From: an uncultured Gemmatimonadales bacterium
GTDB lineage: Bacteria > Gemmatimonadota > Gemmatimonadetes > Gemmatimonadales > GWC2-71-9
Length of the DNA: 64,000 nucleotides
Assembly (NCBI GenBank): GCA_963795085.1
Contig: CAWCFX010000002.1
Location: 160,001 to 224,000, forward strand
Direction of reading: 5' to 3'
In this document: positions 28,816 to 43,753 of the stretch, piece after piece
How positions within the stretch are numbered: position 1 is the first letter of the stretch
Layout of the letters: each line of letters begins with the position of its first letter
Translations under genes and position numbers: made by a program
Notes under the pieces: model-generated
Told to the model about the DNA's origin: nothing
Databases searched by the model: none
Seen by the model: the letters and a program-made list of their open reading frames with translations, nothing else

Positions 28816-30036
28816 GTGGGAGCTACCTCGATTGTACCTGCACGGCTGGCCGCCCAGCATGGGGACTATGGCATTCACCTTGCCGCCCAGGCCGTCTTGG
28901 TCGCGACCCGCGTTGACCCGGTTCCGGGAGGTACCCGCCTGGAGGAAACCCGGGTGGTCCAGCCCGTGGTCATGCTGCGGGCCCATGTACTGGGCGGCCG
29001 GATTCAATTGAGCGGCGTGGTAAACCTGGAGGGATGGACCATCCCCGAGGGAGAACTCACGCCGGGCGCCTTTGGAGAGGGATACGTCGACCGCCGCCAC
29101 CCGCACACCTACTTCCACGAACTGATGGTATCGGGGACCGACCTCCTGGGTCGGCTGGACGGGAGACTTCGTCTCTCCCTGAGCGCCGGGAAGGGCTTTG
29201 CCACCTTCGGTACCGACGACCCCATGAGCCGGCCGCCGGTCCGCTACCCGGTCAACCACCACTTCAGCCAGATCCTGGAGCGGGCGGTAGGCGCGGCCGG
29301 TGCGGCCTACGGCCCTCTGATGCTCGAAGCCTCGCTGTTCAACGGGGACGAGCCGGAGCACCCCGATCAGTGGCCGCTTCTCGACCGGTTCGGCGATTCC
29401 TGGGCGGCCCGGCTGACCGTGTTCCCCCTGCGCGGGTTGGAGGTGCAGGGCTCGCGCGCCACCGTGTTCTCGCCGGAGCATCGGCCCGGGGCCGGACTCG
29501 AAGTCAGCAAACGCAGTGTCTCGGTGCGCTATGCAGAGGCGGTTGCCGGCCTCCCGGTGTACGTGCTGGCCGAATGGTCCGAGTCCTCGGAGGCGGACCG
29601 GTTCTTCGTGTTTGATTCCTACCTGGTTGAGCTGCAACTGAGCCCGGGCCGGCACCGGGCCTATGCCCGCGCCGAGCGGACCGAACGCCCCGAGGAATTC
29701 CGGACCCTGAGCCGGTTTCGCACGGTGCGCCCCCACATGGAGAATACCCTCATCGGGATCACCAGCTGGAACCTGCAGACCATCGGCTACGGACTGGCCG
29801 CCGGCCCGCTGTGGGGAGGGCTCACCATTGAACCGTTCGGCGAGATCACCCATGCCACGGTGTCCAGGGTAGGGCGGGGGCTGTTTCGCCCCGCGCAGCA
29901 CTACGGCGAGACCACCATCTGGGCGCTTTCTGCGGGGATCCGCATCGACTGGCGCATGCGGGGTCACCGCATGGGCCGGTACGGGGTGGCCGCTCCCCCC
30001 CTCACGCTCTCCCATCACCTGGATCAACCCATATGA
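28816..30036 (+). CDS. Exported hypothetical protein, possible outer-membrane beta-barrel with His-rich motifs
   Basis: Signal-like LRLTAAVLFVGATSIVPARLAAQ (true start may be CTG 28789); DRRHPHTYFHEL, VNHHF; alternating beta-strand pattern ending ...LSAGIRIDW. Confidence 0.6.
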   Translation: MGATSIVPARLAAQHGDYGIHLAAQAVLVATRVDPVPGGTRLEETRVVQPVVMLRAHVLGGRIQLSGVVNLEGWTIPEGELTPGAFGEGYVDRRHPHTYFHELMVSGTDLLGRLDGRLRLSLSAGKGFATFGTDDPMSRPPVRYPVNHHFSQILERAVGAAGAAYGPLMLEASLFNGDEPEHPDQWPLLDRFGDSWAARLTVFPLRGLEVQGSRATVFSPEHRPGAGLEVSKRSVSVRYAEAVAGLPVYVLAEWSESSEADRFFVFDSYLVELQLSPGRHRAYARAERTERPEEFRTLSRFRTVRPHMENTLIGITSWNLQTIGYGLAAGPLWGGLTIEPFGEITHATVSRVGRGLFRPAQHYGETTIWALSAGIRIDWRMRGHRMGRYGVAAPPLTLSHHLDQPI

Positions 30037-31811
30037 AGCGCATCACGTTCCTGATCTCCATGGGGCTGCTGGGCAGCCTCGCGTGCGGCGGGGGAGACTC
30101 CGGCAGCGGGCCAGACCCCGAGCCGGCCGGGCCCCGGCTCGCGGTAGCAGGCGGGAACCAGCAGACTGACACGGTGGGACACGTCCTGAACCTCCCGCTC
30201 ACCGTCGTCCTCGAAGACACCCTGGGGCAGCCGATGGCCGGAGTGGTCGTGGAGTGGAGTGTCGTGACCGGAGCCGGGACCGTCACCCCGCGGTCGGCAG
30301 TGACCGGCAGTGATGGCCGGGCGGCGGCGGACTACACCCTCGGGCCCTTGGTCGTCGCCAACTCGGTGCGTGCCTTCAGCGCCGAGGCGGTGTTCCCGGT
30401 GTTCTTTACCGAGAACCCCGTCAACGACGTCCCCTCCCAGTTGATCAGGGCCGCCGGCGACAGCCAGTATTCGGATATCGGCGTGGCCACGGTGACCCAA
30501 TACAGTGTCAAGGTGGCCGACCAGTACGGTAACGCGGTTCCCCAGGCGACCGTCCAGTGGACACCCGCCTCCGGCCAGGGATCGGTCTCGGTGGCGACCT
30601 CGGTCTCTGATGCGGCCGGCATCGCGAGAACCCGCCATACGCCCGCGGTGGCAGGAACGAACGTCGTGACCGCTTCTCCGGTCGGCTTTACCGGTGCGCC
30701 AGTCACCTTTCTCACTCTCGGGGTCCTGCCGCCTGTGCTCATGGCCGAGGTCCCGGTACCGCCGAACTACGGTAGCCACGACACCTTCGTCCGTGACGGG
30801 ATCGCCTTTCACTGTGCCTGGAATACCGGGGTGATCATTCTCGACGTGGGCAATGGTATCCGGGGCGGAAGCCCCTCCAACCCGGTGGAAATCAGCCGGC
30901 TGATCACCGCCGACCATGGTATCCCGGGCGGCTCCGCAGTTCACAATGCCTGGTGGTTTCACAACCCGGTCACCGGTGAGAAGCGATACCTGTTCATCGG
31001 CCAGGAGGGATTAGGGGTCAACGGAGGGAACTCGTCCGGCGACATTCACATCGTCGACGTGTCGAACCTGGCCCAACCGGTCGAGGTGGGCTACTACACG
31101 CTCCCCGGAGCCGGGGTGCATAATTTCTGGATGGACGAAGCCAACCAGGTGCTGTACGCCGCGTTCTATGCCGGGGGGGTGGTGGCGCTCGACGTCTCGG
31201 GGACGCTGCAGGGCAATATCGCCAACCGGCGGATCGCCCGGATCCAGCCTGCCGGCCCGGGCAATACGCTGACCTGGGGCGTCCAGCTCTACCAGGGTTC
31301 ACTCTATGCGTCTGACATGATCAACGGATTCTACCAGCTCAAGCTCAACGGGCTGGTGTTTTCCGTGGCGGCCGGCGGGAACAACATCGACCCGGCGCAA
31401 GGCATCAGCACGGACCTCTGGGTGGCGAACGGGTATGCGTACACCGGGTTTTCCGGGGGGCGCAATTCCAAGGTGCTCGTGTGGCGGCTGGATCCATCCG
31501 GCGCCCCGGTCCTCGTGAACCAGATCATACCGCCGGCCGGGGTCTATTCGCTGAGCGACGTCGAGGTCAGCCCCAGTGGCCGCCTCCTGATGTTTTCCAC
31601 GGAGGGCGGGGTGAACGCAGGGTATTATTTCTATAATCTCAGCGACCCGGCCAATCCCCGGTTCGTATCCCGGTACGTGGTGTCCAATGGAACCGCCGGG
31701 ATTCACACCGCGACCTACGGAACCGTCAACGGTCGCCTCTACGCTTTCGGGTCGAAGAACCCCTCGGGGCCAGCTATGCAGATCCTCGATGTCACCTCAC
31801 TGGATTTCTGA
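30033..31811 (+). CDS. Lipoprotein with Ig-like domains and LVIVD-like beta-propeller
   Basis: Lipobox SLA-C; Ig-like repeats (GNQQTDTVG, GDSQYS); GVIILDV, DIHIVDVSN, GVVALDV, QILDVT repeats. Confidence 0.8.
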   Translation: MKRITFLISMGLLGSLACGGGDSGSGPDPEPAGPRLAVAGGNQQTDTVGHVLNLPLTVVLEDTLGQPMAGVVVEWSVVTGAGTVTPRSAVTGSDGRAAADYTLGPLVVANSVRAFSAEAVFPVFFTENPVNDVPSQLIRAAGDSQYSDIGVATVTQYSVKVADQYGNAVPQATVQWTPASGQGSVSVATSVSDAAGIARTRHTPAVAGTNVVTASPVGFTGAPVTFLTLGVLPPVLMAEVPVPPNYGSHDTFVRDGIAFHCAWNTGVIILDVGNGIRGGSPSNPVEISRLITADHGIPGGSAVHNAWWFHNPVTGEKRYLFIGQEGLGVNGGNSSGDIHIVDVSNLAQPVEVGYYTLPGAGVHNFWMDEANQVLYAAFYAGGVVALDVSGTLQGNIANRRIARIQPAGPGNTLTWGVQLYQGSLYASDMINGFYQLKLNGLVFSVAAGGNNIDPAQGISTDLWVANGYAYTGFSGGRNSKVLVWRLDPSGAPVLVNQIIPPAGVYSLSDVEVSPSGRLLMFSTEGGVNAGYYFYNLSDPANPRFVSRYVVSNGTAGIHTATYGTVNGRLYAFGSKNPSGPAMQILDVTSLDF

Positions 31812-33580
31812 TGCTCCCTGGCACCTCCCGCCCTGGCCAGCCCCGGTACCTGCTGGATTCTGTTCGCTTCCGGCTGGTTCCGGCAGCCGTCCTGTTCGCC
31901 GCCGCTCTCCACCTGTCGTCCTGTGGTGACGGCCATGGACCCGACCAGCGGGTCGCGTCCATCGTCGTCAGTCCGCCCAACGTGGATCTCACGGTCGGCA
32001 CCAGTCTCCAGTTCGCCGCGGCCGCGCTGGATGAAAGCGGCCATCTGATTCCCGGCACCACCTTCACCTGGGTTTCCACGGTGCCGGCGACGGCGACCAT
32101 CGACGGTTCCGGGCTGGCATTCGCCCAGGCAGTGGGGACGACGACCATCGAGGCGAGCGCCGGGGGCGTCACCGGTTCGACTTCCCTCGCCGTGGTGGTG
32201 ACCGTCCAGGCGGGACCGACTCTCACCGCGGTGGGGGGACGCCTCCAGCGCGCGCCGTCCTCCTCCATGCTGCCGGTTCCCTATGTCGTGGAAGCACGGG
32301 ACGGGTCCACTCCGCTCCCCAACGTGGAGATATTGTGGACGGTCGAGAGCGGGGGGGGGACGGTCGCCCAGAGCTCTTCGTTTACGGGAAGCGACGGACG
32401 GGCGAGCATCCTTCATACCCTCGGGCCGGTGCTCGGAGTGCAACAGGTGCAGGCCCGCGCTCCCTCCCTGGCCCCCGCGGACAGCAACAACAGGAATGTG
32501 GCCTTCAGCGCGACGGCTCTCGCGCCGGGCGGCATCGTCCCGGTGGCCAGCGTGGCGATTCCTCCGAATTACGGAATTCACGACACCTTCGTGCGTGAAG
32601 GCATTGCCTTCGTGTTCGCGTGGGACAGCGGGGTCCGGATCTTCGACGTGGGCAACGGCATCCGGGGAGGCAGCCCCTCCAACCCGGTGCTGGTCTCCCG
32701 GGTCGTCACCCATGGGGGGCAAGCCCATAACGGGTGGTGGTTTCACAATCCAAACACCCAGGAGAAGAAGTACCTGTTCGTCGGCGAAGAAGGCCCCGGC
32801 CTGATCGGTAGCTCGTCCTCCGGCGATATCCACGTGATTGATGTCTCCAACCTGGCCGCGCCGCTGGAAGTCGCCTCCTTCACAGTGGCGGGCGCCGGGG
32901 CCCACAACTTCTGGATGGACGAGGCCGCCCAGATTCTCTACGCCGCGTTCTACAACGGGGGCGTGGTCTCAATTGATGTCTCGGGCACCCTCAGCGGCAA
33001 CCTCGCCAGCCGGGAAATCGACCGGCTGGTGCCGGCATCCGGCTCCTACATCTGGGGGGTACAACTGTTCAACGGCTCCGTCTACGCCAGCGACATGGTG
33101 AACGGGTTTTGGCAACTTTCGACCACCGGAGGAAACCTGAGTATCGCCGCGGGTGGTGGCAACGTGCCGGAACGGTTCACATCCGACCTGTGGGTCCATG
33201 GCACCCATGCCTACAGCGGGACCTGGGGCAACCGCGGCGCCCAGGGCAATGTGGTGAAGATCTGGTCACTCAATGGGACCGGAGCGCCGGCGCTTGCCGA
33301 TTCCGTCATCATCCCCGCGATCAGCACGGTCAGCGACGTGGAGGTCAGCGCCGACGGCAGCGTGCTCATGGTGAGCACGGAGGGTGGCAGCGGCGACGGC
33401 TTTCAGTTCTACAGCCTGGCCAACCCGGCCAGCCCGGCCTTTCTGAACCAGCACCTGGTGGGGACCGGCATCCACACCACGACGTTCGGGTACATTGGGG
33501 GCCGGACCTACGCCTTCGGGGCCAAGAACCCGGGGAGCCCCGAACTGGTTGTTCTCGATGTCACCGGTCTGTTTCCCTGA
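31811..33580 (+). CDS. Paralogous Ig-like/LVIVD-like lipoprotein
   Basis: Lipobox LSS-C; IPPNYGIHDTFVREGIAF, HNGWWFHNP, HNFWMDE match the preceding gene. Confidence 0.8.
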   Translation: MLPGTSRPGQPRYLLDSVRFRLVPAAVLFAAALHLSSCGDGHGPDQRVASIVVSPPNVDLTVGTSLQFAAAALDESGHLIPGTTFTWVSTVPATATIDGSGLAFAQAVGTTTIEASAGGVTGSTSLAVVVTVQAGPTLTAVGGRLQRAPSSSMLPVPYVVEARDGSTPLPNVEILWTVESGGGTVAQSSSFTGSDGRASILHTLGPVLGVQQVQARAPSLAPADSNNRNVAFSATALAPGGIVPVASVAIPPNYGIHDTFVREGIAFVFAWDSGVRIFDVGNGIRGGSPSNPVLVSRVVTHGGQAHNGWWFHNPNTQEKKYLFVGEEGPGLIGSSSSGDIHVIDVSNLAAPLEVASFTVAGAGAHNFWMDEAAQILYAAFYNGGVVSIDVSGTLSGNLASREIDRLVPASGSYIWGVQLFNGSVYASDMVNGFWQLSTTGGNLSIAAGGGNVPERFTSDLWVHGTHAYSGTWGNRGAQGNVVKIWSLNGTGAPALADSVIIPAISTVSDVEVSADGSVLMVSTEGGSGDGFQFYSLANPASPAFLNQHLVGTGIHTTTFGYIGGRTYAFGAKNPGSPELVVLDVTGLFP

Positions 33581-33591
33581 TCCCCGCCTCC

Positions 33592-33876
33592 ATGCCCGTC
33601 GTCCTCCAGCGGGATTCCGCGTTTACCCTGAGCCCGGCCGTCCGGGGACGGCAGCTGGATAACGAGCTGATCCTGCTGGACCTTGGCAAGGGGGAGTACT
33701 TCAGCCTGAACGAGAGCGGCGCCGCCGTCTGGGCCTGCCTGGAGCGCGGCATGGCTCTCGGCGCTATTGACGAAGCGATGGCCGGCTGGCCGGTGGCGCC
33801 GGATCAGCGGTGGGAGATGATCACCGCCATCGTGCTCGAGCTTCGGAGCCGGGGACTGCTGGAGCCCGCCGGGTGA
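33592..33876 (+). CDS. PqqD-family RiPP recognition element (lasso B1/E protein)
   Basis: 94 aa: RQLDNELILLDL..GEYFSLNESGAAVW..L...LRSRGLL; ATG lies inside ORF 33109..33876. Confidence 0.9.
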   Translation: MPVVLQRDSAFTLSPAVRGRQLDNELILLDLGKGEYFSLNESGAAVWACLERGMALGAIDEAMAGWPVAPDQRWEMITAIVLELRSRGLLEPAG

Positions 33877-35351
33877 CAGGGCCGGCGGCCTTGGCCGTCC
33901 TGGTTCACGATCCCCGGGTGCGGGAATTCACGCCTGCCACCCTCGCCGAGCTCCGGGTCACCGGCTGGGCGCGTCTCCCCGATGGCGATATCCGGCTCCA
34001 ATCCGATCCAGCCGCCACCCGGCCATTCTGTTACCGGATGCTTGGCCGGACCCTCCACCTCGCCTGCTATCCCGGCGACCTGGCCCGCCTTGGTCCCCCC
34101 CCCGAACTCGACTGGACCACGCTCGCGGGCCTGCCGCGGTTCCGGTTTCCGGACGATGGCGCCACGGCTTTTGCCGGTATCCACCGACTGGCCGCAGGCA
34201 CCACGACGACCATCGCGCCGGATGGCGGCACCCGTTCGCATCGCTGGTGGGAGCTGCCCCCCGAGCCGTCATCGTCCGCCAAGCCGGATCTATTCGGAGC
34301 CCTGGTGCAACAGTGCGCCGGCCAGATCCAGGGCCGGCAGTGCGCCATCCTGCTGAGCGGGGGCCTGGATTCCTCCGCCATCGCGGCCGCGGCGGTGGCA
34401 GCTGCCCGGGCAGGCGGCGGCCCCGATCCGATCCTTGCTTCGCTCGTTTATCCCGGATTGCCCTGCGACGAAGACCTTACCCAGGAGGCCATCGCACGGC
34501 ACTACGGGCTTACGCGGGTCACGGTCAACCCGGTAGGCCGCCCGGTCTGGCCCGGAGCCCTGGGCACGGTCCACTCGCGGCTGGCCCCGGTCGTGGATAC
34601 TCAGTCGGCAGCCATCGGTCAGCTCTTCGAGCAACTGGAGGCCGCCGGATGCCGGGTCGTGCTCACCGGCCTGGGTGGGGATGTCCTGTTTCGCGGCATC
34701 GGGCTGGAAGGGAGCCTGCTGCGGCAGGGCAGACTCCTGGCGATACATCGTCACTTCCGGGGAATTTCCCGGGCCCTGCCGGTCTCGGTGCCAAGGCTCT
34801 GGTGGGCCGGTGTTCTCCGGCCCCTCGCCACCGGACGCCGGGGCCCCGGGCTTTCCCGCGCGGAGGTCCTGCGGGCAGGGAGCTCGGTCCGCAGTACCCT
34901 GATCCGCAACCTCGCGGCCGGCGGTACCGGGTGGTTGACCGAAGCGGTGGAACAATCCGGTAACCATCGCCTGGCCCTGGAGAGTCCGTTCTACGGCGCC
35001 GCCTTTCTTGACCAGTACTCCCGGCTGACCCAGCAGGATTTCGCGTCGAGCGCCTCCCACAAGGGAATCCTTCGCGAGATGATCCGGCCGCACCTGCCCG
35101 CTGCGGTGGTGAACCGCGTCAGGAAGCCGAACTTTCTTGATTATCATGCCACCTGGCTCCATCGGGAGCGCAGTTCCCTCGCGGCTCGCTATCGCGAAGT
35201 GCGGCCGATGGCTCCCGCCTCCATTGACATGCCGGCGGATATTAGCCGGGCCCTCAACGCCACCAGCGGCTCGGACGGGTTCTCCAGCTCCTGGATGAGT
35301 TTGACGATGCTCGAGTTCCTGGCGGCCTGGAACTTGAGGGTCAACCCTTGA
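33873..35351 (+). CDS. Asparagine-synthetase-like lasso cyclase (C protein)
   Basis: LLSGGLDSS, CDE, VLTGLGGD, PFY, KGILRE...HLP..V.NR.RK; no N-terminal Cys glutaminase; GTGA-coupled to the RRE. Confidence 0.85.
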   Translation: MTGPAALAVLVHDPRVREFTPATLAELRVTGWARLPDGDIRLQSDPAATRPFCYRMLGRTLHLACYPGDLARLGPPPELDWTTLAGLPRFRFPDDGATAFAGIHRLAAGTTTTIAPDGGTRSHRWWELPPEPSSSAKPDLFGALVQQCAGQIQGRQCAILLSGGLDSSAIAAAAVAAARAGGGPDPILASLVYPGLPCDEDLTQEAIARHYGLTRVTVNPVGRPVWPGALGTVHSRLAPVVDTQSAAIGQLFEQLEAAGCRVVLTGLGGDVLFRGIGLEGSLLRQGRLLAIHRHFRGISRALPVSVPRLWWAGVLRPLATGRRGPGLSRAEVLRAGSSVRSTLIRNLAAGGTGWLTEAVEQSGNHRLALESPFYGAAFLDQYSRLTQQDFASSASHKGILREMIRPHLPAAVVNRVRKPNFLDYHATWLHRERSSLAARYREVRPMAPASIDMPADISRALNATSGSDGFSSSWMSLTMLEFLAAWNLRVNP

Positions 35352-35417
35352 CGCCCCGTGCCGGGACGGGCAGCTTTCATTCACCCCTGGAAAAACCGAG
35401 TACCTCAGGAGATCGCC

Positions 35418-35558
35418 ATGGATCGGGAGCGCCCCGCCACGACGGCCAGTATGCCCAGGTTCGAACCCCCCAGGCTGACTCCGCTGGGGAGTGTCACCCG
35501 GGTGACCCAGGCCTTCGAACCTGGCACCAATACCGACTTCACGATGTCGTCGTTCTAG
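35418..35558 (+). CDS. Lasso peptide precursor (46 aa); predicted core AFEPGTNTDFTMSSF
   Basis: AGGAGA RBS; leader FEPPRLTPLGSVTRVT-Q fits (Y/F)xxPxLxxxGxxxxxT; core Ala1 with Asp9. Confidence 0.85.
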   Translation: MDRERPATTASMPRFEPPRLTPLGSVTRVTQAFEPGTNTDFTMSSF

Positions 35559-35656: not shown

Positions 35657-36502
35657 ATGCCTCCCGGCATCATCACGCCAACTCTCGCGATCGCCGGGTG
35701 GGAACGGATAGCCCGGCATTCCAGCCTGGCCATCACGGTCCGGTCTGGAACACCTCGCGGAATTGCCGTGCCACCGGGGGTAATTAACCGGGTGGACGGC
35801 GGCTGGGCGTTCACAACCGCCGACGGGCAATGGTACCGAGTCCGGGGACCGGCGCCCGTCGCCGTGGAGGGGTACCCGCTGGAGCAGGCGACCGAACCGG
35901 AATCAGTGCTCCGCCTGTTCGGGCCGGTTACCGCCCTGGTGGCCCAGGTCAGCGGGTGCCAGCCACTTCACGCCGCGGGATTGATGCGGGGAGGGAAGGT
36001 CCTGGCTCTCTGTGCCGAGTCTGGCCAGGGCAAATCCACGCTGGCGGCACTGGCGGCGGCCCACGGATGGCAGGTCCAGGGCGATGACCTGCTCGCGGTG
36101 GACCGATCGGGTATGGTGTTGCCACTACCCGGCTCACTCCGCGTCCGTCCCGAACTGGCGCCGCCGGGATGCACCTCGGCCTGGCATCTGCCCGATGGCC
36201 GGGAATGGTATCCGCTTCCGGCGCCCGCCCATTCCGCCCAACTCGGGGGGATTGTCCGTCTCGCCAGGGGCAGGGAGATCCTGCTGCGCACGCTTCGCGG
36301 CGCCGAACGGCTGGCCACTGTCGCCGTCGCCGCCTTGGCCCCATTCTTCGGCCATGTCGAGAACGATCCGCATCCCGCCCGGCTGCTGGACCTGGCCGGG
36401 GCCACTCCAGCCTGGCATCTCACCGTGCCTGAAGGGCTGACCCGCCTGCGCGAGTCCTGGGGCATATTGGATGGCCTGCTCACCGGTCTCCTCGGCGAAT
36501 GA
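35657..36502 (+). CDS. HPr-kinase-like P-loop kinase (lasso peptide kinase type)
   Basis: PLHAA, AESGQGKSTLA, GDD. Confidence 0.85.
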   Translation: MPPGIITPTLAIAGWERIARHSSLAITVRSGTPRGIAVPPGVINRVDGGWAFTTADGQWYRVRGPAPVAVEGYPLEQATEPESVLRLFGPVTALVAQVSGCQPLHAAGLMRGGKVLALCAESGQGKSTLAALAAAHGWQVQGDDLLAVDRSGMVLPLPGSLRVRPELAPPGCTSAWHLPDGREWYPLPAPAHSAQLGGIVRLARGREILLRTLRGAERLATVAVAALAPFFGHVENDPHPARLLDLAGATPAWHLTVPEGLTRLRESWGILDGLLTGLLGE

Positions 36503-38289
36503 GCACGCCGGACGCGGTCGGGCAACGCCGGCCGAGGGGACGGGACCTGGTCATGCTCGGGCTGGCGGCGGGACTTCTCACCGGGCTGGGCGAAACGGTC
36601 CTCCTGCTGGTGAAACGGTTCCTCCGGGGCCGATTCATCACGGTTGGGGAGCACGCGCTCTGGATGGCGCCGGTCGCGGACGCGCTCCTCTTCACGCTAC
36701 TCGCCATCATCTTCGTGGCGCTTACCCGCCGGGTCAGCGTCGAGCGGCGGGACCGCCTCTTTGCCACCATGCTGGTGGCCCTGGGCCTCACGGCGATGCT
36801 GACCCTGTGGGGCCGTTTCCATTGGGTCGCCACGATCCTGCTCAGCCTCGGCATCGCGGTGCGATTGAGCGGACGGATCGCTCCCCGGCTGGATGCCCTG
36901 ATGAGGGCGGGGCGGGCGGCCATGCCGGGGATGGCGGTCCTGGTCCTGCTCACGGCGGCCGGCGTCGCCGGGGAAGCCTGGTGGAAGGAGCGTAAGAGCC
37001 TCGAGGCGACCCCCGCGGGATCCCAGCCTAATGTCCTGCTGATCATCCTGGACACCGTTCGCAGCCTGAGTATGGGCCTGTACGGACATGCCCGGGACAA
37101 CACACCCGAGCTGGCTCGCTGGGCCGCCCGGGGCACCGTCTTCGATCACGCCTTCTCCTCGTCCTCCTGGACCCTTCCCTCTCATGCCGCCATGTTCACC
37201 GGCCGGTGGCAAACCGATCTCACGGTCCGATTCAACCGCCCCCTCGACAGCACCTGGCCTACCCTGGCTGAATTCCTGGGGGACCGCGGGTATGCGACGG
37301 GGGGGTTCGTGGCCAACCTGATCTACACGCCCCGGGAATCCGGCCTGGCCCGCGGGTTCGGCCACTACGAGGATTTCGGCCTCAACGTCCGGGTGTTCAT
37401 TCGCAGTGCCACCCTGCTGCGGAAGCTGGTGGACCGGCCCCGGTTCCGCTGGGCCGCCCGGCCCCGGCACCCCATGCTGTGGAAGACGGCCCGGGAAGTC
37501 TCCGGGGGAGCGCTCGACTGGATCGACCGGCAGGAGGAGGACCGGCCCTGGTTCGCCTTCCTCAACTACATGGAGGCGCATGATCCCTGGTATGTCCCGG
37601 CTCCCTTCGATACCCTCTACGGGAATGGGGCCCTTCATATCTCATGGGCGGAGATGACCGCGACGCCGCTGCCCCCGCCGGTTGCCCTGGTCCGCTTCGC
37701 CGAGGGCTACGATGCGGCCATCGCCTATCTGGATCAGGAGATCGGCAGCCTGCTTGACACGCTCGAGCGGCGCGGGCGGCTTCGCAATACGATCGTCGTG
37801 ATTACCTCGGATCACGGCGAAGAGATCGGCGAGCACCAGTTCCTGGGGCATGGCGCCAGCCTCTACCGGCCGACCGTGGAGGTCCCCCTGATCGTAATCG
37901 CGCCCGGCTGCGCAATGTCCGGAGGCCGGGCACCGGATCCGGTATCGCTCCGGGACTTCGCCGCGACCATCATGGACCTCACCGGTATGCCGGAGCATCC
38001 TTTTCCCGGGGCTTCCTTCGCGGCCCTGGCCTGTCCCGGCAACGACACCCAGGCCTATCCCCGGCCGGTCTTCTCTGTGCTTCAGGAGGCCCGGGGACGC
38101 GCCAACCCTACCCTGGTCTCGGTGGTCCAGGATTCTTTCCGGTTTATCGGGGATGGACAGGGCAGGGGGGAACTCTACAGTTTTTACGGCGATCCGCTGG
38201 AACAACACGACCTGGCCGCCCAGCCGATGCTGGGTCCTGCCTTGCTCCGGCTCCAGACCCTGGCCGACTCACTCCGAAAACCTCACTGA
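36499..38289 (+). CDS. Membrane-anchored sulfatase-like (alkaline phosphatase superfamily) hydrolase/transferase
   Basis: About 5 N-terminal TM segments; PNVLLIILDTVR, WTLPSHAAMFTG, NYMEAHDPW, TSDHGE, GHG. Confidence 0.88.
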   Translation: MSTPDAVGQRRPRGRDLVMLGLAAGLLTGLGETVLLLVKRFLRGRFITVGEHALWMAPVADALLFTLLAIIFVALTRRVSVERRDRLFATMLVALGLTAMLTLWGRFHWVATILLSLGIAVRLSGRIAPRLDALMRAGRAAMPGMAVLVLLTAAGVAGEAWWKERKSLEATPAGSQPNVLLIILDTVRSLSMGLYGHARDNTPELARWAARGTVFDHAFSSSSWTLPSHAAMFTGRWQTDLTVRFNRPLDSTWPTLAEFLGDRGYATGGFVANLIYTPRESGLARGFGHYEDFGLNVRVFIRSATLLRKLVDRPRFRWAARPRHPMLWKTAREVSGGALDWIDRQEEDRPWFAFLNYMEAHDPWYVPAPFDTLYGNGALHISWAEMTATPLPPPVALVRFAEGYDAAIAYLDQEIGSLLDTLERRGRLRNTIVVITSDHGEEIGEHQFLGHGASLYRPTVEVPLIVIAPGCAMSGGRAPDPVSLRDFAATIMDLTGMPEHPFPGASFAALACPGNDTQAYPRPVFSVLQEARGRANPTLVSVVQDSFRFIGDGQGRGELYSFYGDPLEQHDLAAQPMLGPALLRLQTLADSLRKPH

Positions 38290-38777
38290 TGGAAACCATC
38301 AACCGCCGATCCGCCCAGCACATCACCCGGAGTGGATTGTTCCCGCTTCGCTGTGCCGTCCTGAACCTCCCGTACGGGCCCCTGGCGGTATTCAGCCCGT
38401 CCGAAGGCCTCAAGCGAGTATTGGTTGAGACCGCCGGCCTGCGGGACGTCGAGATCCTGGGCGACGGTACCTTCGGGCTGACTCGGGCCGGGAAGGTTCT
38501 CCTGCCTGACCCCACCCCGCTGACCGCCCTGGTCAATCTGGTCGAAGGGGACCATTGCGCCCTGGGGCGGGTCGGTGGGCAGCGACGGCTCTCGATGCTC
38601 CTTGCGGCGGGATCGACCGGCGAGCTGGAGCCGGTTGCGGGCGATCCCTGGTACGACTCGCTCCTCGACATCACGGCCTCGCTCCCGGTCTGGGAGATGG
38701 TGCTTCCGCCCGAGCGCCGGGACATGCGCGCGGCCTGGCCCGAGATCGCCATGTTGCTGGCCGAATCGGCGTCATGA
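38289..38777 (+). CDS. Degenerate (pseudokinase) paralog of the 35657-36502 kinase
   Basis: Two ungapped blocks align by eye with the kinase (18/57 and 22/80 identities); catalytic motifs replaced. Confidence 0.7.
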   Translation: METINRRSAQHITRSGLFPLRCAVLNLPYGPLAVFSPSEGLKRVLVETAGLRDVEILGDGTFGLTRAGKVLLPDPTPLTALVNLVEGDHCALGRVGGQRRLSMLLAAGSTGELEPVAGDPWYDSLLDITASLPVWEMVLPPERRDMRAAWPEIAMLLAESAS

Positions 38778-39802
38778 CGGCCGAGCCCGCGCCGCTGGCC
38801 TGGGTGATCCTCATGGCCGCGGGGCGGGAGGTGGCGGTGCCCTCCGCCGAGTCGTGGCAGACACATCTGGAATGCCTCCGCCGCAGCCGCCTGGTTCCGC
38901 TGGCCGCCCACCTGCTCCAATCCAGATTCCAGGAACTGCACCCGGACACCCGGCGCTATCTCGAGGCCGCCACGATGATGGCGGAATCAAACGTCGAGCA
39001 GGCGGCCAGCGCACTGGTGGAGATTGCCGCCCGGTTCGACCGGCGTGCCATCCGCTGGGTGGTGCTCAAGGGGTATCCGCTGGCCGCTCGGCTCTATCCG
39101 AGACCTTCCTGCCGGCCCAGTGGTGACATAGACCTGCTGGTTGACGAGCCGTCGCTGGCGGCTGCGGAGGAGGATTTAGTGGAAGCGGGGTACCGGGCGG
39201 AGGGAGCGGACCGTTCCTACCATCTCCGGCTGGTCCGGAAGGGTCAAACGGGGACCCAGGTCGTCGAGCTTCACCATCGGGCCGCGCCCGCCGCCCACGG
39301 AGGGCCCCGGACGGCAGACATTCTGGCCCACCGGCGGGCCTTCCCGATCTCCGGGTCCACCGGGTGGCTGCCTTCGGCCGGGCATGAGGTCGATCTATTG
39401 ATCCGCCACTACCTGCGGCACGCGGGCCACCAGGCCATCTGGCTGGTGGACCTCCTGCTGCTTTCGGCCGGGACCCCGCTGTGGCACCGGCTGGGATCGC
39501 CCATTGGCGATGACCTCGAGCGGGTGGGGCTACCCCGCCTGGTTGACGGGCCGGCCCGCTATTCCCTGCGCCCACTGCGCCGCTGGATGGCCCGGCGAAC
39601 TTTCGAGGAGCGGCACACGGCGCGGCACATCTCGCCGGTCGGCACGGCGCTCGCGCTGGCCGAGTCGCCCGGGGCGGCATCCCGGATGCTGGCGAGGCTG
39701 GCGTGGCCAAGCCAGCCTACCCCGCGTTGGTTCGCCACCAGTCACACCAGTTGGGGCCGCTACACCTGGCGGATCCGGCGCTTGTTCAAGCTGGGAGGCT
39801 GA
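38774..39802 (+). CDS. Nucleotidyltransferase family protein (NTP_transf_5-like)
   Basis: VVLKG..LA.RLYP....RPSGDIDLLV, VELHH; ATGA-coupled. Confidence 0.88.
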   Translation: MTAEPAPLAWVILMAAGREVAVPSAESWQTHLECLRRSRLVPLAAHLLQSRFQELHPDTRRYLEAATMMAESNVEQAASALVEIAARFDRRAIRWVVLKGYPLAARLYPRPSCRPSGDIDLLVDEPSLAAAEEDLVEAGYRAEGADRSYHLRLVRKGQTGTQVVELHHRAAPAAHGGPRTADILAHRRAFPISGSTGWLPSAGHEVDLLIRHYLRHAGHQAIWLVDLLLLSAGTPLWHRLGSPIGDDLERVGLPRLVDGPARYSLRPLRRWMARRTFEERHTARHISPVGTALALAESPGAASRMLARLAWPSQPTPRWFATSHTSWGRYTWRIRRLFKLGG

Positions 39803-39806
39803 TCGG

Positions 39807-41795
39807 TCAGGGCTGCGGTCCTCCGGCCGGCGCCCGTGGCCACCCGTTGTTCTCCCGCCGGACTTCGGGGAACGCCCGGTCCGGGTCGATGCGCACCGAG
39901 GTCACGCGGGTGGGACCCGGTATCGCGGCCACGTAGGTGTCGCCGTAGTACCAGATCTCGACCGGCAGCGTCACCCGGCGGCTGAATCCGTCGTCCATCA
40001 TCAGGTCCATCACCACCGGCACCGGCATCGGGCCGATCTTCCGCAGGTAGATCAGCGAGAGGGGCTGCCCGGTGCTGTCGGGCGTCCGGACCGAGTCCAC
40101 GGCGATGTCCATCGTCTCCGTCGTGTAGAAGTAACTCCGCCAGAACCAGCTCAGGTCCTCCCCTGCGCCGTCCTCGATCGTCCTGAAAAAATCCGCCGGC
40201 GTGGGGTGCCGGTACTGCCAGCGCCGGATGAACTCCTTGAACGCAGGATCGAAACGATCCGGGCCGAGGATGTAGTCCCGGAGCAGCCGAAGCCCCAGCC
40301 CGGGTTTGTTGTAGGCTACCATGCCGAGGCCGGAAGGGTCTGTCCGGTCCGCGGGGGTAGCGATGGGCTGTTCCCGGCCGCTCAGCGCGAACTGGATCTG
40401 GAGATCGGTGTTGGCCCGCCGGTTGAACCTCCCGGGATACTTCGCCTCCCAGTTGTAGTAGTTCATGAACGTGTTGAACCCCTCGTCCATCCAGGGGTAG
40501 AGTCGTTCGTTGTTCCCGACCAGCATGGGAAACCAGGTGTGCCCGAATTCGTGATCGGTGACGCTGTAGAGCGCTTCGGCCCCATCGCGGTTGCAGAAGA
40601 TGATCATGGGATATTCCATGCCGCCCTCCCGCCCGTTGATGTTGATGGCCATGGGGTAGGGGTAGGGCCACCACTGCTCCGAGTAGCGCTCGATGGCGGT
40701 CTTGCCGTACTGGGTCGCCAGGTGCCAGGTGGAGTCCGCCGAAGGCGGATACAGGCTCATCACCAGGACGTTGCCACCGTTGGCACGGGCGGCGTCCCAC
40801 ACGAAGTGAGTGGCCGCGGCCCAGGCGAAGTCGCGCACACTGTCGGCCACGAATCGCCAGGTCAGCGTCCCGGCTCGGGAGGCGGGACGGGTGGCCGGAT
40901 CCCGGACTTCGTCCTTCCCCCGAATGATCACGGTGGTGTCGCTGGCCCGGGCGGCTGCCAGCCGGGTCCGCTGGACCGGGGTCAGCACCGCTACCGGGTT
41001 CTGCAGGGTCCCGGTCGCGGCCACGATCATACTGGCCGGGACGGTGAGACTGACGTCGAACTTTCCGTACTCGAGATAGAACTCGCCATTGCCCATGTAT
41101 GGCTCGGTATTCCAGCCCCGGATATCGTCGTAGACCGCGAGCCGGGGATACCACTGGGCCACCTCGTAGATGACGTCTCCATCTACGGTGACGATCCCCA
41201 TCCGGCTGTTGATCTCTTCAAGGAAAGGGAAATACCACTCCACGTCGAACACCACCTTGCCGCCGGGCGGGAGCGGCCGGGCCAGGTCCACCCGCATCAG
41301 GGTCCCGTTGATCCGGTAGCGGAGTTCGGAGGCCCGCTGGGCCGGCCGCCCCGGGGCCGCCGCCAGCGCCGGCTGGGAGACGCCGCCAATAGTGACTCCG
41401 CCGTCGGCCCCGCCGGTGCCGAAGCGCGCGTCCGGCGGAACCACCAGGCTGCCCCGGCTGTCGGAGCGGAACAGGTTCTGGTCCAGTTGCAGCCAGAGGT
41501 ATCGGAGCGTATCGGGCGAATGGTTGCTGTAGGTGATCCGCTCCTCTCCCGTGAGGATCTTCCGGGCGGTATCGAGGGTGGCCCGAATGACGTAGTCCAC
41601 CCGCTGCTGCCAGTACTCCCGTCCCGGCGCCCCGCTCCCGGTGCGGTACCGGTTGGGGGCCGGGAGATCGAGCCGGCGGAAGGGCGAACCATCGGCCGTG
41701 GGTTCGGGCACCGGGGCGCTGGCGGTGCGCGGCTGCTGGGCCGCGAGCGGGAGAGCCAGGAAAGCCAGCAGCAGACAAGACGGGGAGGTACGCAC
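39807..41795 (-). CDS. M1 family zinc metallopeptidase, exported
   Basis: GGMEYP, HEFGHTWF...WMDEG (HEXXH-X18-E); signal peptide; GTG start overlapping upstream TAG with AAGGAG RBS. Confidence 0.93.
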   Translation of the reverse strand: MRTSPSCLLLAFLALPLAAQQPRTASAPVPEPTADGSPFRRLDLPAPNRYRTGSGAPGREYWQQRVDYVIRATLDTARKILTGEERITYSNHSPDTLRYLWLQLDQNLFRSDSRGSLVVPPDARFGTGGADGGVTIGGVSQPALAAAPGRPAQRASELRYRINGTLMRVDLARPLPPGGKVVFDVEWYFPFLEEINSRMGIVTVDGDVIYEVAQWYPRLAVYDDIRGWNTEPYMGNGEFYLEYGKFDVSLTVPASMIVAATGTLQNPVAVLTPVQRTRLAAARASDTTVIIRGKDEVRDPATRPASRAGTLTWRFVADSVRDFAWAAATHFVWDAARANGGNVLVMSLYPPSADSTWHLATQYGKTAIERYSEQWWPYPYPMAININGREGGMEYPMIIFCNRDGAEALYSVTDHEFGHTWFPMLVGNNERLYPWMDEGFNTFMNYYNWEAKYPGRFNRRANTDLQIQFALSGREQPIATPADRTDPSGLGMVAYNKPGLGLRLLRDYILGPDRFDPAFKEFIRRWQYRHPTPADFFRTIEDGAGEDLSWFWRSYFYTTETMDIAVDSVRTPDSTGQPLSLIYLRKIGPMPVPVVMDLMMDDGFSRRVTLPVEIWYYGDTYVAAIPGPTRVTSVRIDPDRAFPEVRRENNGWPRAPAGGPQP

Positions 41796-43753
41796 TACGG
41801 GGCTCCTTTCCACTCGTTGTTGGCCGGGTTCACGTCCGGCAGCATGCCATCCGCATTGACGGTGGCCGACCGGACCGGTGCCGACGTCGGCACGCTGGCG
41901 ATGTACCGGTCGCCGTTATACCAGATCTCCACCGGGAACCGGACCACCTCGGTGGATCCATCCTGCAGCACCATCGTGAGGGTCACCGGCATCACCTGCC
42001 CGCCCAGGTTGCGGAGGGTGACGCGGGCCAGGTTGCGGCCGCCCGCGGCCCGCTGGGTTACCGACTCGATCCCCTGGTCCAGTGCAGCAGTGGTAAAGAT
42101 CCATCCCCGCCAGAACCAGGACAGGTCGCGGCCGGAGACGTCCTCCATGGTTCTGATGAAATCCGCCGGGTAGGGGTGCTTGAAGGCCCAGCGGCGGATG
42201 TACTCCCGGAACGCCGCGTCGAACACGGTGGAATCGAGCACCTGGTGGCGCAGCGTGAGCAGCATCAGCGACGGCTTGATGTAGGCCAGGCTTCCGAGGT
42301 TGTTGTCGCCCCGGTACCGGTTGGCGGGCGTGATCATGGGCTGGGCGGCGGGGAGCCGGTCGTTCTGCAGGACGAACGCCAGCTCGCCCTGGCGGACCTG
42401 GGAATCATCGCGGGAGAAGTATCCCTCCTCCGCGAAGGTGTTGATGAAGGTGTTGAACCCCTCGTCCATCCAGGCGAAGCGCCGCTCATCGCTGCCCACG
42501 ATCATCGGGAACCAGTTATGTCCAATCTCGTGGGTCACGACGCTGAAGACCTCCGCCAGGCTCCCGGCATCCGATTCCATGGCGAGCATGGGGTACTCCA
42601 TGCCGGAGACCGGCCCCTCGACCGCGGAGATCTGCGGATAGGGATAGCGGAACCAGCGGGTGCTGTACTCCATGATCGAATAGCGGGACTGGCGCGCCAC
42701 GTCCGACCAGTTGGCCCGCGCCGCCGGCCGGTAGTAGGCATGGGCCAGCACCCCGTCCCAGCCGGCCGCATCCCAGAGATACTCCGGAGAGGCGGCCCAG
42801 GCCACGTCCCGGACATTGGCTGCCCGGAACTTCCAGGTGAGGGTGCCGCCGGCGCGGGGCCGTGCCGTTCCGGCGCGAAGATCCTGCTCGCGGATGATCG
42901 GCACCGCGGTATCCGATGTCCGGGCCACCGCGAGCCGGGATCGCTGGTCCGCGGTCAGGACTTCGAGCGGGTTCGCAAGCGTCCCGGTGCCGGCGACGAT
43001 GAATCCCGCGGGGAGGGTTACCTGGTAGTCAATGTCGCCGTACTCGAGGTAGAACTCGCCCTGGCCCAGGTAGGGATCGGTGCTCCAGCCCTCGACATCG
43101 TCGTACACCGCCATCCGGGGATACCACTGGGCCATTTCGTAGAGGCTGCCTTCCCGCCCCATCCGGTCAGCGCCGTGCTCGGGAATGTTGAAGTGGTAGC
43201 GAATCGCCAGCGAGGTGGCCCGCCCGGGCGCCACCGGCGTCGCGAGCGCGACCCGCATCATGGTGCCGTCCACCCAGGTGGTGACCGGCAGGCGGGCCGC
43301 CGCGGTCCGGGGCCGGTTTGCACCGCCGGTGAGCGCGGGCGTCGGTACCTGGACGATGTCTTCGATTGTGTAGCCGCCCTCGAAGCCGGCGCCGCCGAAC
43401 CGGCTGGCCGAGGCATTCAGCAGGGCGCCGGCACTCCCGGGCCGAAACAGGTTCTGGTCCAGCTGTAACCAGAGCTGCGCCAGGGTGTCCGGTGAATTGT
43501 TGGTGTAGCGGATGGTGACGGACCCGCTGAGGCGCTGGGTTGCCGTATCCAGGGTGACGGCGATCGAATAGTCGGCGCGCTGCTGCCAATACCCCGGTCC
43601 GGGAGCGCCGTTAGGCCGCCGGGCCAGGCCCGGGGCGGAAAGGGGCAGGGGACTGAAGATCCCGGTATCGGCGACCACGGACTTCGAGCTGGTCTGTTGG
43701 GCATGCACGGGGTAACCGAGCACCAGGAGCGGGAGCAGCCATAACGGGCGCAC
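41795..43753 (-). CDS. M1 family zinc metallopeptidase, exported (paralog)
   Basis: SGMEYP, HEIGHNWF...WMDEG; signal peptide ...VHA-QQ; YWQQR.DY. Confidence 0.93.
   Translation of the reverse strand: MRPLWLLPLLVLGYPVHAQQTSSKSVVADTGIFSPLPLSAPGLARRPNGAPGPGYWQQRADYSIAVTLDTATQRLSGSVTIRYTNNSPDTLAQLWLQLDQNLFRPGSAGALLNASASRFGGAGFEGGYTIEDIVQVPTPALTGGANRPRTAAARLPVTTWVDGTMMRVALATPVAPGRATSLAIRYHFNIPEHGADRMGREGSLYEMAQWYPRMAVYDDVEGWSTDPYLGQGEFYLEYGDIDYQVTLPAGFIVAGTGTLANPLEVLTADQRSRLAVARTSDTAVPIIREQDLRAGTARPRAGGTLTWKFRAANVRDVAWAASPEYLWDAAGWDGVLAHAYYRPAARANWSDVARQSRYSIMEYSTRWFRYPYPQISAVEGPVSGMEYPMLAMESDAGSLAEVFSVVTHEIGHNWFPMIVGSDERRFAWMDEGFNTFINTFAEEGYFSRDDSQVRQGELAFVLQNDRLPAAQPMITPANRYRGDNNLGSLAYIKPSLMLLTLRHQVLDSTVFDAAFREYIRRWAFKHPYPADFIRTMEDVSGRDLSWFWRGWIFTTAALDQGIESVTQRAAGGRNLARVTLRNLGGQVMPVTLTMVLQDGSTEVVRFPVEIWYNGDRYIASVPTSAPVRSATVNADGMLPDVNPANNEWKGAP

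Follow-up and report, generated by a model that had tools for sequence, protein, structure and literature searches.

Lasso peptide clusters that encode an HPrK-like kinase, such as PadeK (paeninodin) or PsmK (pseudomycoidin), are described with a single kinase and with a transferase of PsmN type whose action follows phosphorylation (PMC8498205, PMC6993621, PMC13352647; these and the other papers below are cited from excerpts). The terminal Ser is the residue phosphorylated by the known lasso kinases, and it is not settled whether the transferase substrate is the precursor or the folded peptide (PMC8498205). This mode of lasso tailoring is barely understood. Here we analyse a window of 64,000 nucleotides from an uncultured Gemmatimonadales bacterium (contig CAWCFX010000002.1, positions 160,001 to 224,000; coordinates below are those of the window), which carries a compact lasso-type operon on the + strand. 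The operon encodes, in order, a PqqD-like protein, a cyclase, a precursor, an HPrK-like kinase (P0002), a sulfatase-fold protein, a protein of 162 residues (P0001) and a nucleotidyltransferase. The P0001 gene (38289..38777, +) encodes an HPrK-like core minus the N-terminal domain and a 34-residue internal block. P0001 is probably a pseudoenzyme paralogue of the HPrK-like lasso kinases, with a helper role so far undescribed for a lasso pathway.

P0001 resembles PadeK and PsmK in family, as judged by sequence profile and fold, and in setting, its lasso cluster also encoding a precursor, a cyclase, a PqqD protein and a PsmN-like nucleotidyltransferase (PMC8498205, PMC6993621). Unlike them, it is without the His, the Walker A motif, the second Asp, the N-terminal domain and the 34-residue block, and it shares its operon with an intact kinase. 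Its likeness to the C-terminal domain of HPr kinase/phosphorylase (HPrK/P; structures 3tqf, 1kkm and 2qmh) is at the level of fold (Foldseek probability 0.98-1.00; Z 8.9 with the VIA aligner). In contrast to HPrK/P, it has no P-loop and a Gly at the equivalent of the catalytic Asp179; the identity is 10-12%, and a PF07475 match was not obtained.

A dead kinase in a lasso pathway is not mentioned in the excerpts of the reviews and of the pseudomycoidin paper (PMC8498205, PMC6993621, PMC13352647), and a literature search for 'lasso peptide' with 'pseudokinase' returned only the citation of an unrelated pseudokinase; both searches covered literature outside subscription journals. Within that literature, the remark in a sequence-only reading of this DNA that no such subunit is familiar from lasso pathways stands.

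Non-catalytic paralogue subunits do exist among the pathways for RiPPs (peptides made by ribosomes and then given post-translational modifications), for example the E1-like 'Ocin-ThiF-like' protein that binds the leader as partner of certain cyclodehydratases. P0001 would be like this partner as a dead paralogue retained as an adaptor for an adjacent enzyme, and unlike it in fold and pathway. A conserved dead kinase between kinase and nucleotidyltransferase activities hints at a hand-off, either from protein to protein or from protein to peptide, and P0001 would exemplify a pseudoenzyme among the HPrK/PEPCK-fold kinases. Its interest lies mainly in the fact that a likely intermediate and diverged orthologues open both its evolutionary path and its function to experiment.

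Homology, fold and lost motifs

P0001 is homologous to the HPrK-like lasso kinase family. BLASTP aligned P0001 with P0002 over 170 columns with 43 identities and one 34-residue gap (E 2e-5), and the 18 identities in 57 positions that had been counted by hand for the first block were recovered exactly in the ungapped BLASTP block. The Smith-Waterman score of the pair was 99, compared with a mean of 34.9 (standard deviation 6.0) for 2000 composition-preserving shuffles of P0001, none of which attained it (z 10.7); shuffle tests with the kinase orthologues P0006 and P0007 gave z values of 24 and 20. Profile-profile comparison with hhalign, using three short forms and three kinases of clade A (see below), gave a probability of 98.9% over 146 columns (E 2.8e-17). 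When the 3.9-Mb genome of the organism itself was searched in six frames, the sole further match to P0001 was the C-terminal part of P0002 (E 1.2e-3). Taken together, these results show that the similarity is real and not compositional, so that the proposed kinship withstood both shuffled controls and profile comparison. Full-length family members were also matched directly by phmmer, with E values from 3e-10 to 6e-34. Of 8 matches to the kinase, 6 bear the precomputed label PF27840 (lasso kinases of the HPrK-like PadeK/PsmK type). The Pfam model PF07475 (Hpr_kinase_C) matched neither P0001 nor P0002 at E <= 1, and some relatives matched it weakly, below the cut-off.

The fold is predicted with confidence to be of HPrK/PEPCK type, as expected for the family. 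An AlphaFold2 (AF2) model of P0001, built from an alignment termed A2, had a predicted local distance difference test score (pLDDT) of 90.1 and a predicted template modelling score (pTM) of 0.85. Foldseek placed HPrK/P chains at the top of its Protein Data Bank matches (3tqf, 1kkm and 2qmh, E 4.4e-4 to 9.3e-4), followed by PEPCK. With the VIA aligner, the match to PEPCK reached Z 10.0 and that to the HPrK/P chain 3tqf_B Z 8.9 (110 residues, root-mean-square deviation 3.0); for the P0002 model, the corresponding values were Z 11.8 and Z 11.4.

Alignment A2 has 14 rows: 10 intact kinases, a 301-residue protein P0013, and three short forms (P0001, P0003 and P0004). The motifs PLH, GxGKST and GDD are present in all 10 intact kinases and in none of the three short forms. 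At the conserved His of the PLH motif, P0001 has Arg21 (38349..38351, +); the short forms read PLR, PLR and PLQ, and P0013 reads PLL. At the Walker A position, where kinases have xxSGxGKST, P0001 carries a degenerate SPSEGLKRV (38394..38420, +) and the other two short forms GSEALKAA and SVEALRSA, with GxGKST in 11 of 11 full-length rows. The Asp-Asp pair is replaced by Asp59-Gly60 (38463..38468, +), the short forms reading GDG, GDG and GNG, and P0013 GDG. The substitutions picked out in the sequence-only reading (PLH to PLR, GQGKST to EGLKRV, GDD to GDG) are thus all borne out in A2.

That reading had also noted a missing N-terminal region and a missing central segment, which we now locate at kinase residues 3-91 and 156-189 (34 residues) in P0002 numbering. 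The N-terminal in-frame deletion has its junction at Ser8/Ala9 (38310..38315, +), where P0013 residues 8-112 are absent and the METxN start is retained; the internal junction lies at Leu71/Leu72 (38499..38504, +). All three short forms have the same two deletions (residues 8-112 and 177-210 of P0013). The N-terminal domain lost by P0001 amounts to ~90-105 residues, and in the AF2 model of P0002 (pLDDT 89.8) it forms a separate helix-plus-five-strand domain. The 34-residue piece takes in, in the same model, strand 159-163, the connecting loop and the greater part of strand 183-187, and comes immediately after the Asp-Asp hairpin. Of the 26 columns that are invariant when 12 kinases are aligned, 8 fall in this piece (G159, L161, A168, P169, D180, R182, W184 and L187), and with them the best-conserved residues that the family has outside the P-loop. 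P0001 therefore has the homology and the predicted fold of the family, and is without its Walker A motif GxxGxGK[ST], its His (PLH), its Asp-Asp pair, its ~90-residue N-terminal domain and its GSLR...DGRxW block.

The lost residues are of the kind on which catalysis depends in described enzymes. A D158A/D159A double mutant of PsmK is inactive (PMC6993621), and the active site of HPrK/P includes His140, Lys161, Ser162, Glu204 and Asp179, the last being the proton acceptor, with residues 203-212 also required (PMC9399212). The kinase profile gave no sequence-level match to HPrK/P, and the catalytic residues are thus mapped by motif and position only, the lasso-kinase motifs being equated with HPrK/P residues by motif order and fold rather than by residue-level structural alignment. 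Given the motif losses, P0001 cannot be a P-loop kinase.

Relatives and related loci

Two proteins matching P0001 in size emerged from a word-indexed search: P0003 (163 residues, 65% identical) and P0004 (162 residues, 48%), both metagenomic. A further protein of 163 residues, P0023, is a one-residue variant of P0003 and represents no independent lineage, since it falls in the 90% cluster of P0003. An exhaustive phmmer search of 1.84 billion representatives (E <= 1e-3) returned 12 proteins: the query, P0004, eight kinases of 256-309 residues, each matched in two stretches, and two shorter proteins (148 and 219 residues). The top full-length match was the metagenomic P0013 (E 6.4e-34), and P0006, an orthologue of the cluster kinase, was matched with E 3e-10. 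Scans for relatives in metagenome contigs (A3, P0007) and in genome contigs (A3) found none.

P0013 and P0022, both metagenomic and of 301 residues, stand closest to P0001 among full-length proteins. They are 56-57% identical to P0001 over the shared parts, have the METLN N-terminus and the LLAESAS C-terminus of the short forms, and already have the His and the second Asp replaced. They differ from P0001 in their full length, in their intact GRGKST P-loop and in retaining the 34-residue block. By sequence, P0013 looks like a full-length intermediate, and with it the order of pseudoenzyme evolution becomes readable: the losses read as His and Asp first (the P0013 stage), then the P-loop together with the two deletions.

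A maximum-likelihood tree of 26 rows and 213 columns was built from 18 database proteins, the kinase of a related locus (L047, described below) and 7 of the 14 kinases from fetched loci, with P0005, P0008, P0019 and P0022-P0026 omitted. It contains a tight family of 15 rows (support 100/100), in which the first branches are the L047 kinase with P0018, and P0021. Clade A, consisting of P0020, P0006, P0002 and P0007 (95/89), is sister to clade B (98/94), the pair having support of 99/98. Clade B holds the intact kinases P0014-P0017 as well as P0013 joined with the short forms (100/99); the short forms themselves group at 100/100. From this topology, P0001 appears to be related to the cluster kinase through an older split and is not a fresh duplicate of its neighbour. 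The sequence-only reading of P0001 as a dead kinase relative is thus upheld by the homology, the motif loss, the conserved orthologues and the confident fold, and has to be amended as to descent: P0001 belongs to the sister clade B and is not a recent copy of the gene next to it.

HPrK-like kinase genes and PF14907 genes are very common in the phylum, and the short form is confined to one genome of the sample. A kinase-profile match was found in 125 of 401 sampled phylum genomes, and the short form in the window's genome only. PF14907 genes, the family of the nucleotidyltransferase, occur in 196 of the 401, and several genomes have more than one kinase or PF14907 locus, on different contigs. 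Both tallies include four unpublished genomes (G057, G097, G157 and G182), which enter no locus-level statement.

Each of 14 fetched loci has exactly one kinase-like open reading frame (ORF) and gave no match to the short-form profile. Pfam annotation covers 12 of them (L036 and L041 excluded). In four of the 12 (L039, L040, L042 and L043), the PF14907 gene comes straight after the kinase gene and overlaps it, and ATP-binding cassette (ABC) transporter genes lie between the two in five (L033, L034, L035, L037 and L046). A gene for a B2 protease intervenes in L044, the arrangement is unresolved in L038, and L045 has no transferase in the stretch. Sulfatase-family members were found neither among the proteins scanned in the 12 annotated loci nor in L047.

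The closest named cluster, L047, comes from a Gemmatimonadales metagenome-assembled genome, and its kinase is 42% identical to P0013. The genes are arranged as a Big/LVIVD-like protein, PqqD, a short cyclase, a precursor with a terminal Ser, the kinase and an overlapping PF14907 gene, with no second kinase. In view of the gene orders in L047 and the other related loci, the layout of the window looks like the ancestral layout after duplication of the kinase and insertion of the sulfatase-fold gene. We infer that the degenerate copy, P0001, holds the ancestral place upstream of the transferase.

Probable maintenance and possible role

Several lines of evidence indicate that the P0001 gene is under constraint. 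P0003 and P0004 show neither internal indels nor frameshifts relative to P0001, down to 48% identity, and the three short forms share 65 invariant columns. The block Val116-Trp135 (VAGDPWYDxLLDITAxLPVW; 38634..38693, +) is invariant in the short forms at 18 of its 20 positions and near-identical in P0013. At eleven positions where 9 or more of 10 kinases agree, every one of the three short forms departs from the kinase residue, and 10 of these 11 fall at residues 21-63, the former nucleotide site. Conversely, 16 positions do not vary among the short forms and P0013 and are shared by at most 2 of 10 kinases, 12 of them at residues 96-159. This pattern of newly invariant and changed positions argues for changed rather than lost constraint.

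The gene itself also has the marks of a coding sequence. P0001, its orthologues P0003 and P0004 and the variant P0023 are 162-163 residues long without internal indels, and the signs of a pseudogene (frameshifts, stops or length variation among orthologues, a lost coding signature) are absent. GC content by codon position is 0.71/0.50/0.83 in P0001 and similar in its neighbours, for example 0.69/0.50/0.83 in the sulfatase-fold gene. Branch lengths of the short forms (0.15-0.57) are in the range of active kinases (0.26-0.66). P0001 has not diverged further from its nearest homologues (65% and 48% identity) than have the kinase (53% and 49%) and the nucleotidyltransferase (53% and 47%) from theirs, although the homologues compared may belong to different organisms. 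As the sequence-only reading had stated, the 162-residue ORF is intact and overlaps both neighbours: its ATG overlaps the upstream stop by one base (TGATG), and its stop overlaps the ATG of the nucleotidyltransferase gene (ATGA, 38774-38777). The frameshifts in orthologues that would have spoken for a pseudogene are absent from P0003 and P0004. Three DNA sequencing runs contained 8-13% of words, and their short contigs cover the P0001 ORF in fragments.

Since P0001 is disabled and has nonetheless been kept intact, it is probably a non-enzymatic helper. The account that we favour, and hold to be rather likely, is that P0001 is a maintained non-catalytic pseudokinase, the shrunken descendant of a second HPrK-like lasso-tailoring kinase, serving as a structural subunit. 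According to this account, the kinase gene would have been duplicated in this lineage, and the precursor-adjacent copy (clade A) would have retained catalysis. The copy directly upstream of the nucleotidyltransferase gene, in the ancestral position, would have lost its catalytic residues first, at a stage represented by P0013, and would then have been trimmed through two in-frame deletions. P0001 would no longer bind ATP or transfer phosphate, and would persist as a structural subunit, stoichiometric with the nucleotidyltransferase via the ATGA coupling. Its conserved C-terminal helices and loop may dock on the nucleotidyltransferase or hold the Ser-rich C-terminal tail of the precursor for that enzyme; as a second option, P0001 may dock on the active kinase. 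We infer a partner among the nucleotidyltransferase, the kinase and the precursor. The sequence-only reading had put forward, as candidate roles, a hetero-oligomer subunit, a substrate adaptor or a partner of the nucleotidyltransferase. A complex prediction for kinase, nucleotidyltransferase and P0001 scored 0.00 against a mark of 0.32, without controls, and gives no evidence either way.

A stronger form of this account, which we regard as doubtful, would make P0001 an obligatory specificity subunit, through which the non-terminal Ser residues of the precursor (tail ...TMSSF) are presented either to the nucleotidyltransferase or to the kinase. If this were true, the tailoring logic would be one unseen in paeninodin- or pseudomycoidin-type clusters, and P0001 and P0013 would together record the passage from enzyme to adaptor, with catalytic residues lost first and P-loop and domains later.

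Some findings weigh against P0001 as a maintained structural subunit. In the five annotated loci where ABC-transporter genes intervene between kinase and PF14907 genes, the arrangement indicates that a kinase-transferase complex is not obligatory in relatives. The AF2 confidence reflects in part the fold of the family and not the stability of the trimmed protein, because the alignment held 11 full-length kinases. Of 1000 runs of a substitution-only neutral simulation, 21% ended with an open frame at 65% identity and 11% at 48%, so that an intact frame alone is weak evidence in GC-rich DNA. Finally, the known orthologues besides the window's own are two diverged lineages on short metagenomic contigs, which may belong to clusters of another kind.

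Among the alternatives, P0001 might be the hetero-oligomer partner of the active clade A kinase, with its C-terminal helix and loop binding the peptide in trans. It would thereby alter the kinase's specificity, for example toward the non-terminal Ser residues of a precursor ending in SSF. In HPrK/P, HPr is bound by the catalytic site of one subunit together with the C-terminal helix and the Arg245 loop of its neighbour (PMC9399212). This analogy with HPrK/P hexamers speaks for a hetero-oligomer, as does the fact that it is exactly the C-terminal half that the short form retains and strongly conserves. The precursor of the window does end in SSF, and that of L047 in Ser. However, no interface is supported, and the gene to which P0001 is coupled is that of the nucleotidyltransferase rather than that of the kinase. 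A scan for residues that clade A has lost and the other rows have kept yielded one column only, which is no clear sign of complementary loss; the loop Trp W121, present in 7 of the 11 rows outside clade A and in none of the 4 rows within it, is not clean enough to use. We therefore consider such a partnership unlikely.

A re-purposed enzyme, or a binder of the phosphorylated or finished peptide, such as an immunity or chaperone protein, would fit the novel invariant residues that the former P-loop (Glu39 and Leu41, in 3 of 3 short forms) and the loop and helix at 117-132 have acquired. P0001 nevertheless shows no recognisable catalytic constellation, has zero Pfam or NCBIfam matches at E <= 1, and in a search of the short-form profile against solved structures yielded a single weak and insignificant match (E 1.7), which makes this a remote prospect.

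Decay, in which P0001 would be the dying copy of a duplicated kinase, held open by the rarity of stops in DNA of 67% GC, is the least probable of all, for although every catalytic motif is gone, two large deletions have occurred, neutral simulations leave the frame open in 11-21% of runs, and nothing similar was found in the 401 sampled phylum genomes (the window's own aside) or in a pattern scan of species-representative genomes, three sequences diverged to 48% identity have a common length, start, both deletion junctions and the block with 18 of 20 invariant positions, and the 16 clade-specific positions, the gene-like codon-position GC, the branch lengths and the preserved overlaps point the same way. 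The shared deletions, the conserved C-terminal block, the coding GC at third positions, the overlaps and the confident fold thus render decay unlikely, and a maintained pseudokinase remains the best reading of P0001.

Neighbouring genes

The active-looking kinase P0002 (35657..36502, +) has His105, GQGKST and the Asp-Asp pair. The nucleotidyltransferase gene, translationally coupled to the P0001 gene, lies at 38774..39802 (+) and matches PF14907 (E 3.2e-37). The operon begins with the gene for a PqqD-like leader-binding protein (RiPP recognition element; 33595..33876, +), identified in Pfam and NCBIfam scans, and continues with a 513-residue asparagine-synthase-like lasso cyclase (33810..35351, +; Pfam/NCBIfam), in which a GATase domain was not detected. 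The 476-residue cyclase of L047 is likewise without a detected GATase domain; the cyclases of the related loci have 595-701 residues and bear one. A scan for promoters and terminators gave nothing exceeding shuffle expectation.

The lasso precursor ORF (35358..35558, +) matches NF033528 (lasso_cyano, E 7.6e-5), with a likely start at Met32 (35451). The precursor read from that start (35451-35558) ends in ...FTMSSF, its terminal Phe being preceded by two Ser; that of L047 (7630-7833) ends in ...GAFGS, with a terminal Ser.

Between the kinase and P0001 genes lies the gene for a membrane-anchored sulfatase-fold protein of the alkaline-phosphatase superfamily (36499..38289, +; PF00884, E 8.1e-48). 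It has several hydrophobic segments at its N-terminus and weak NCBIfam matches to phosphoethanolamine transferases. The sulfatase signature is C/S-x-P-x-R, and at this position the protein has TLPSH, a sequence that suggests not a sulfatase but a phosphotransferase or hydrolase with a Thr nucleophile.

The window's cluster is without a B2 leader-peptidase gene, the only PF13471 match of the genome being on a different contig; clusters without B have been described by Zyubko et al. (PMC6993621). Two tandem M1-family peptidase genes (39807-43753, - strand) are convergent with the end of the operon, and an M28 peptidase gene lies just downstream in L047 (9808-11913 region). To regard these peptidases as candidates for leader removal in a B2-less cluster is pure speculation.

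Immediately upstream of the PqqD gene, two paralogous proteins of ~590 residues with Big_1/Big_2 domains and LVIVD repeats are encoded at 30033-33580. A similar Big_1 protein occupies the same place in L047 (4479-5990) and has the motif 'IPPNYGIHDTFVR' in common with them. These proteins may be members of the cluster.

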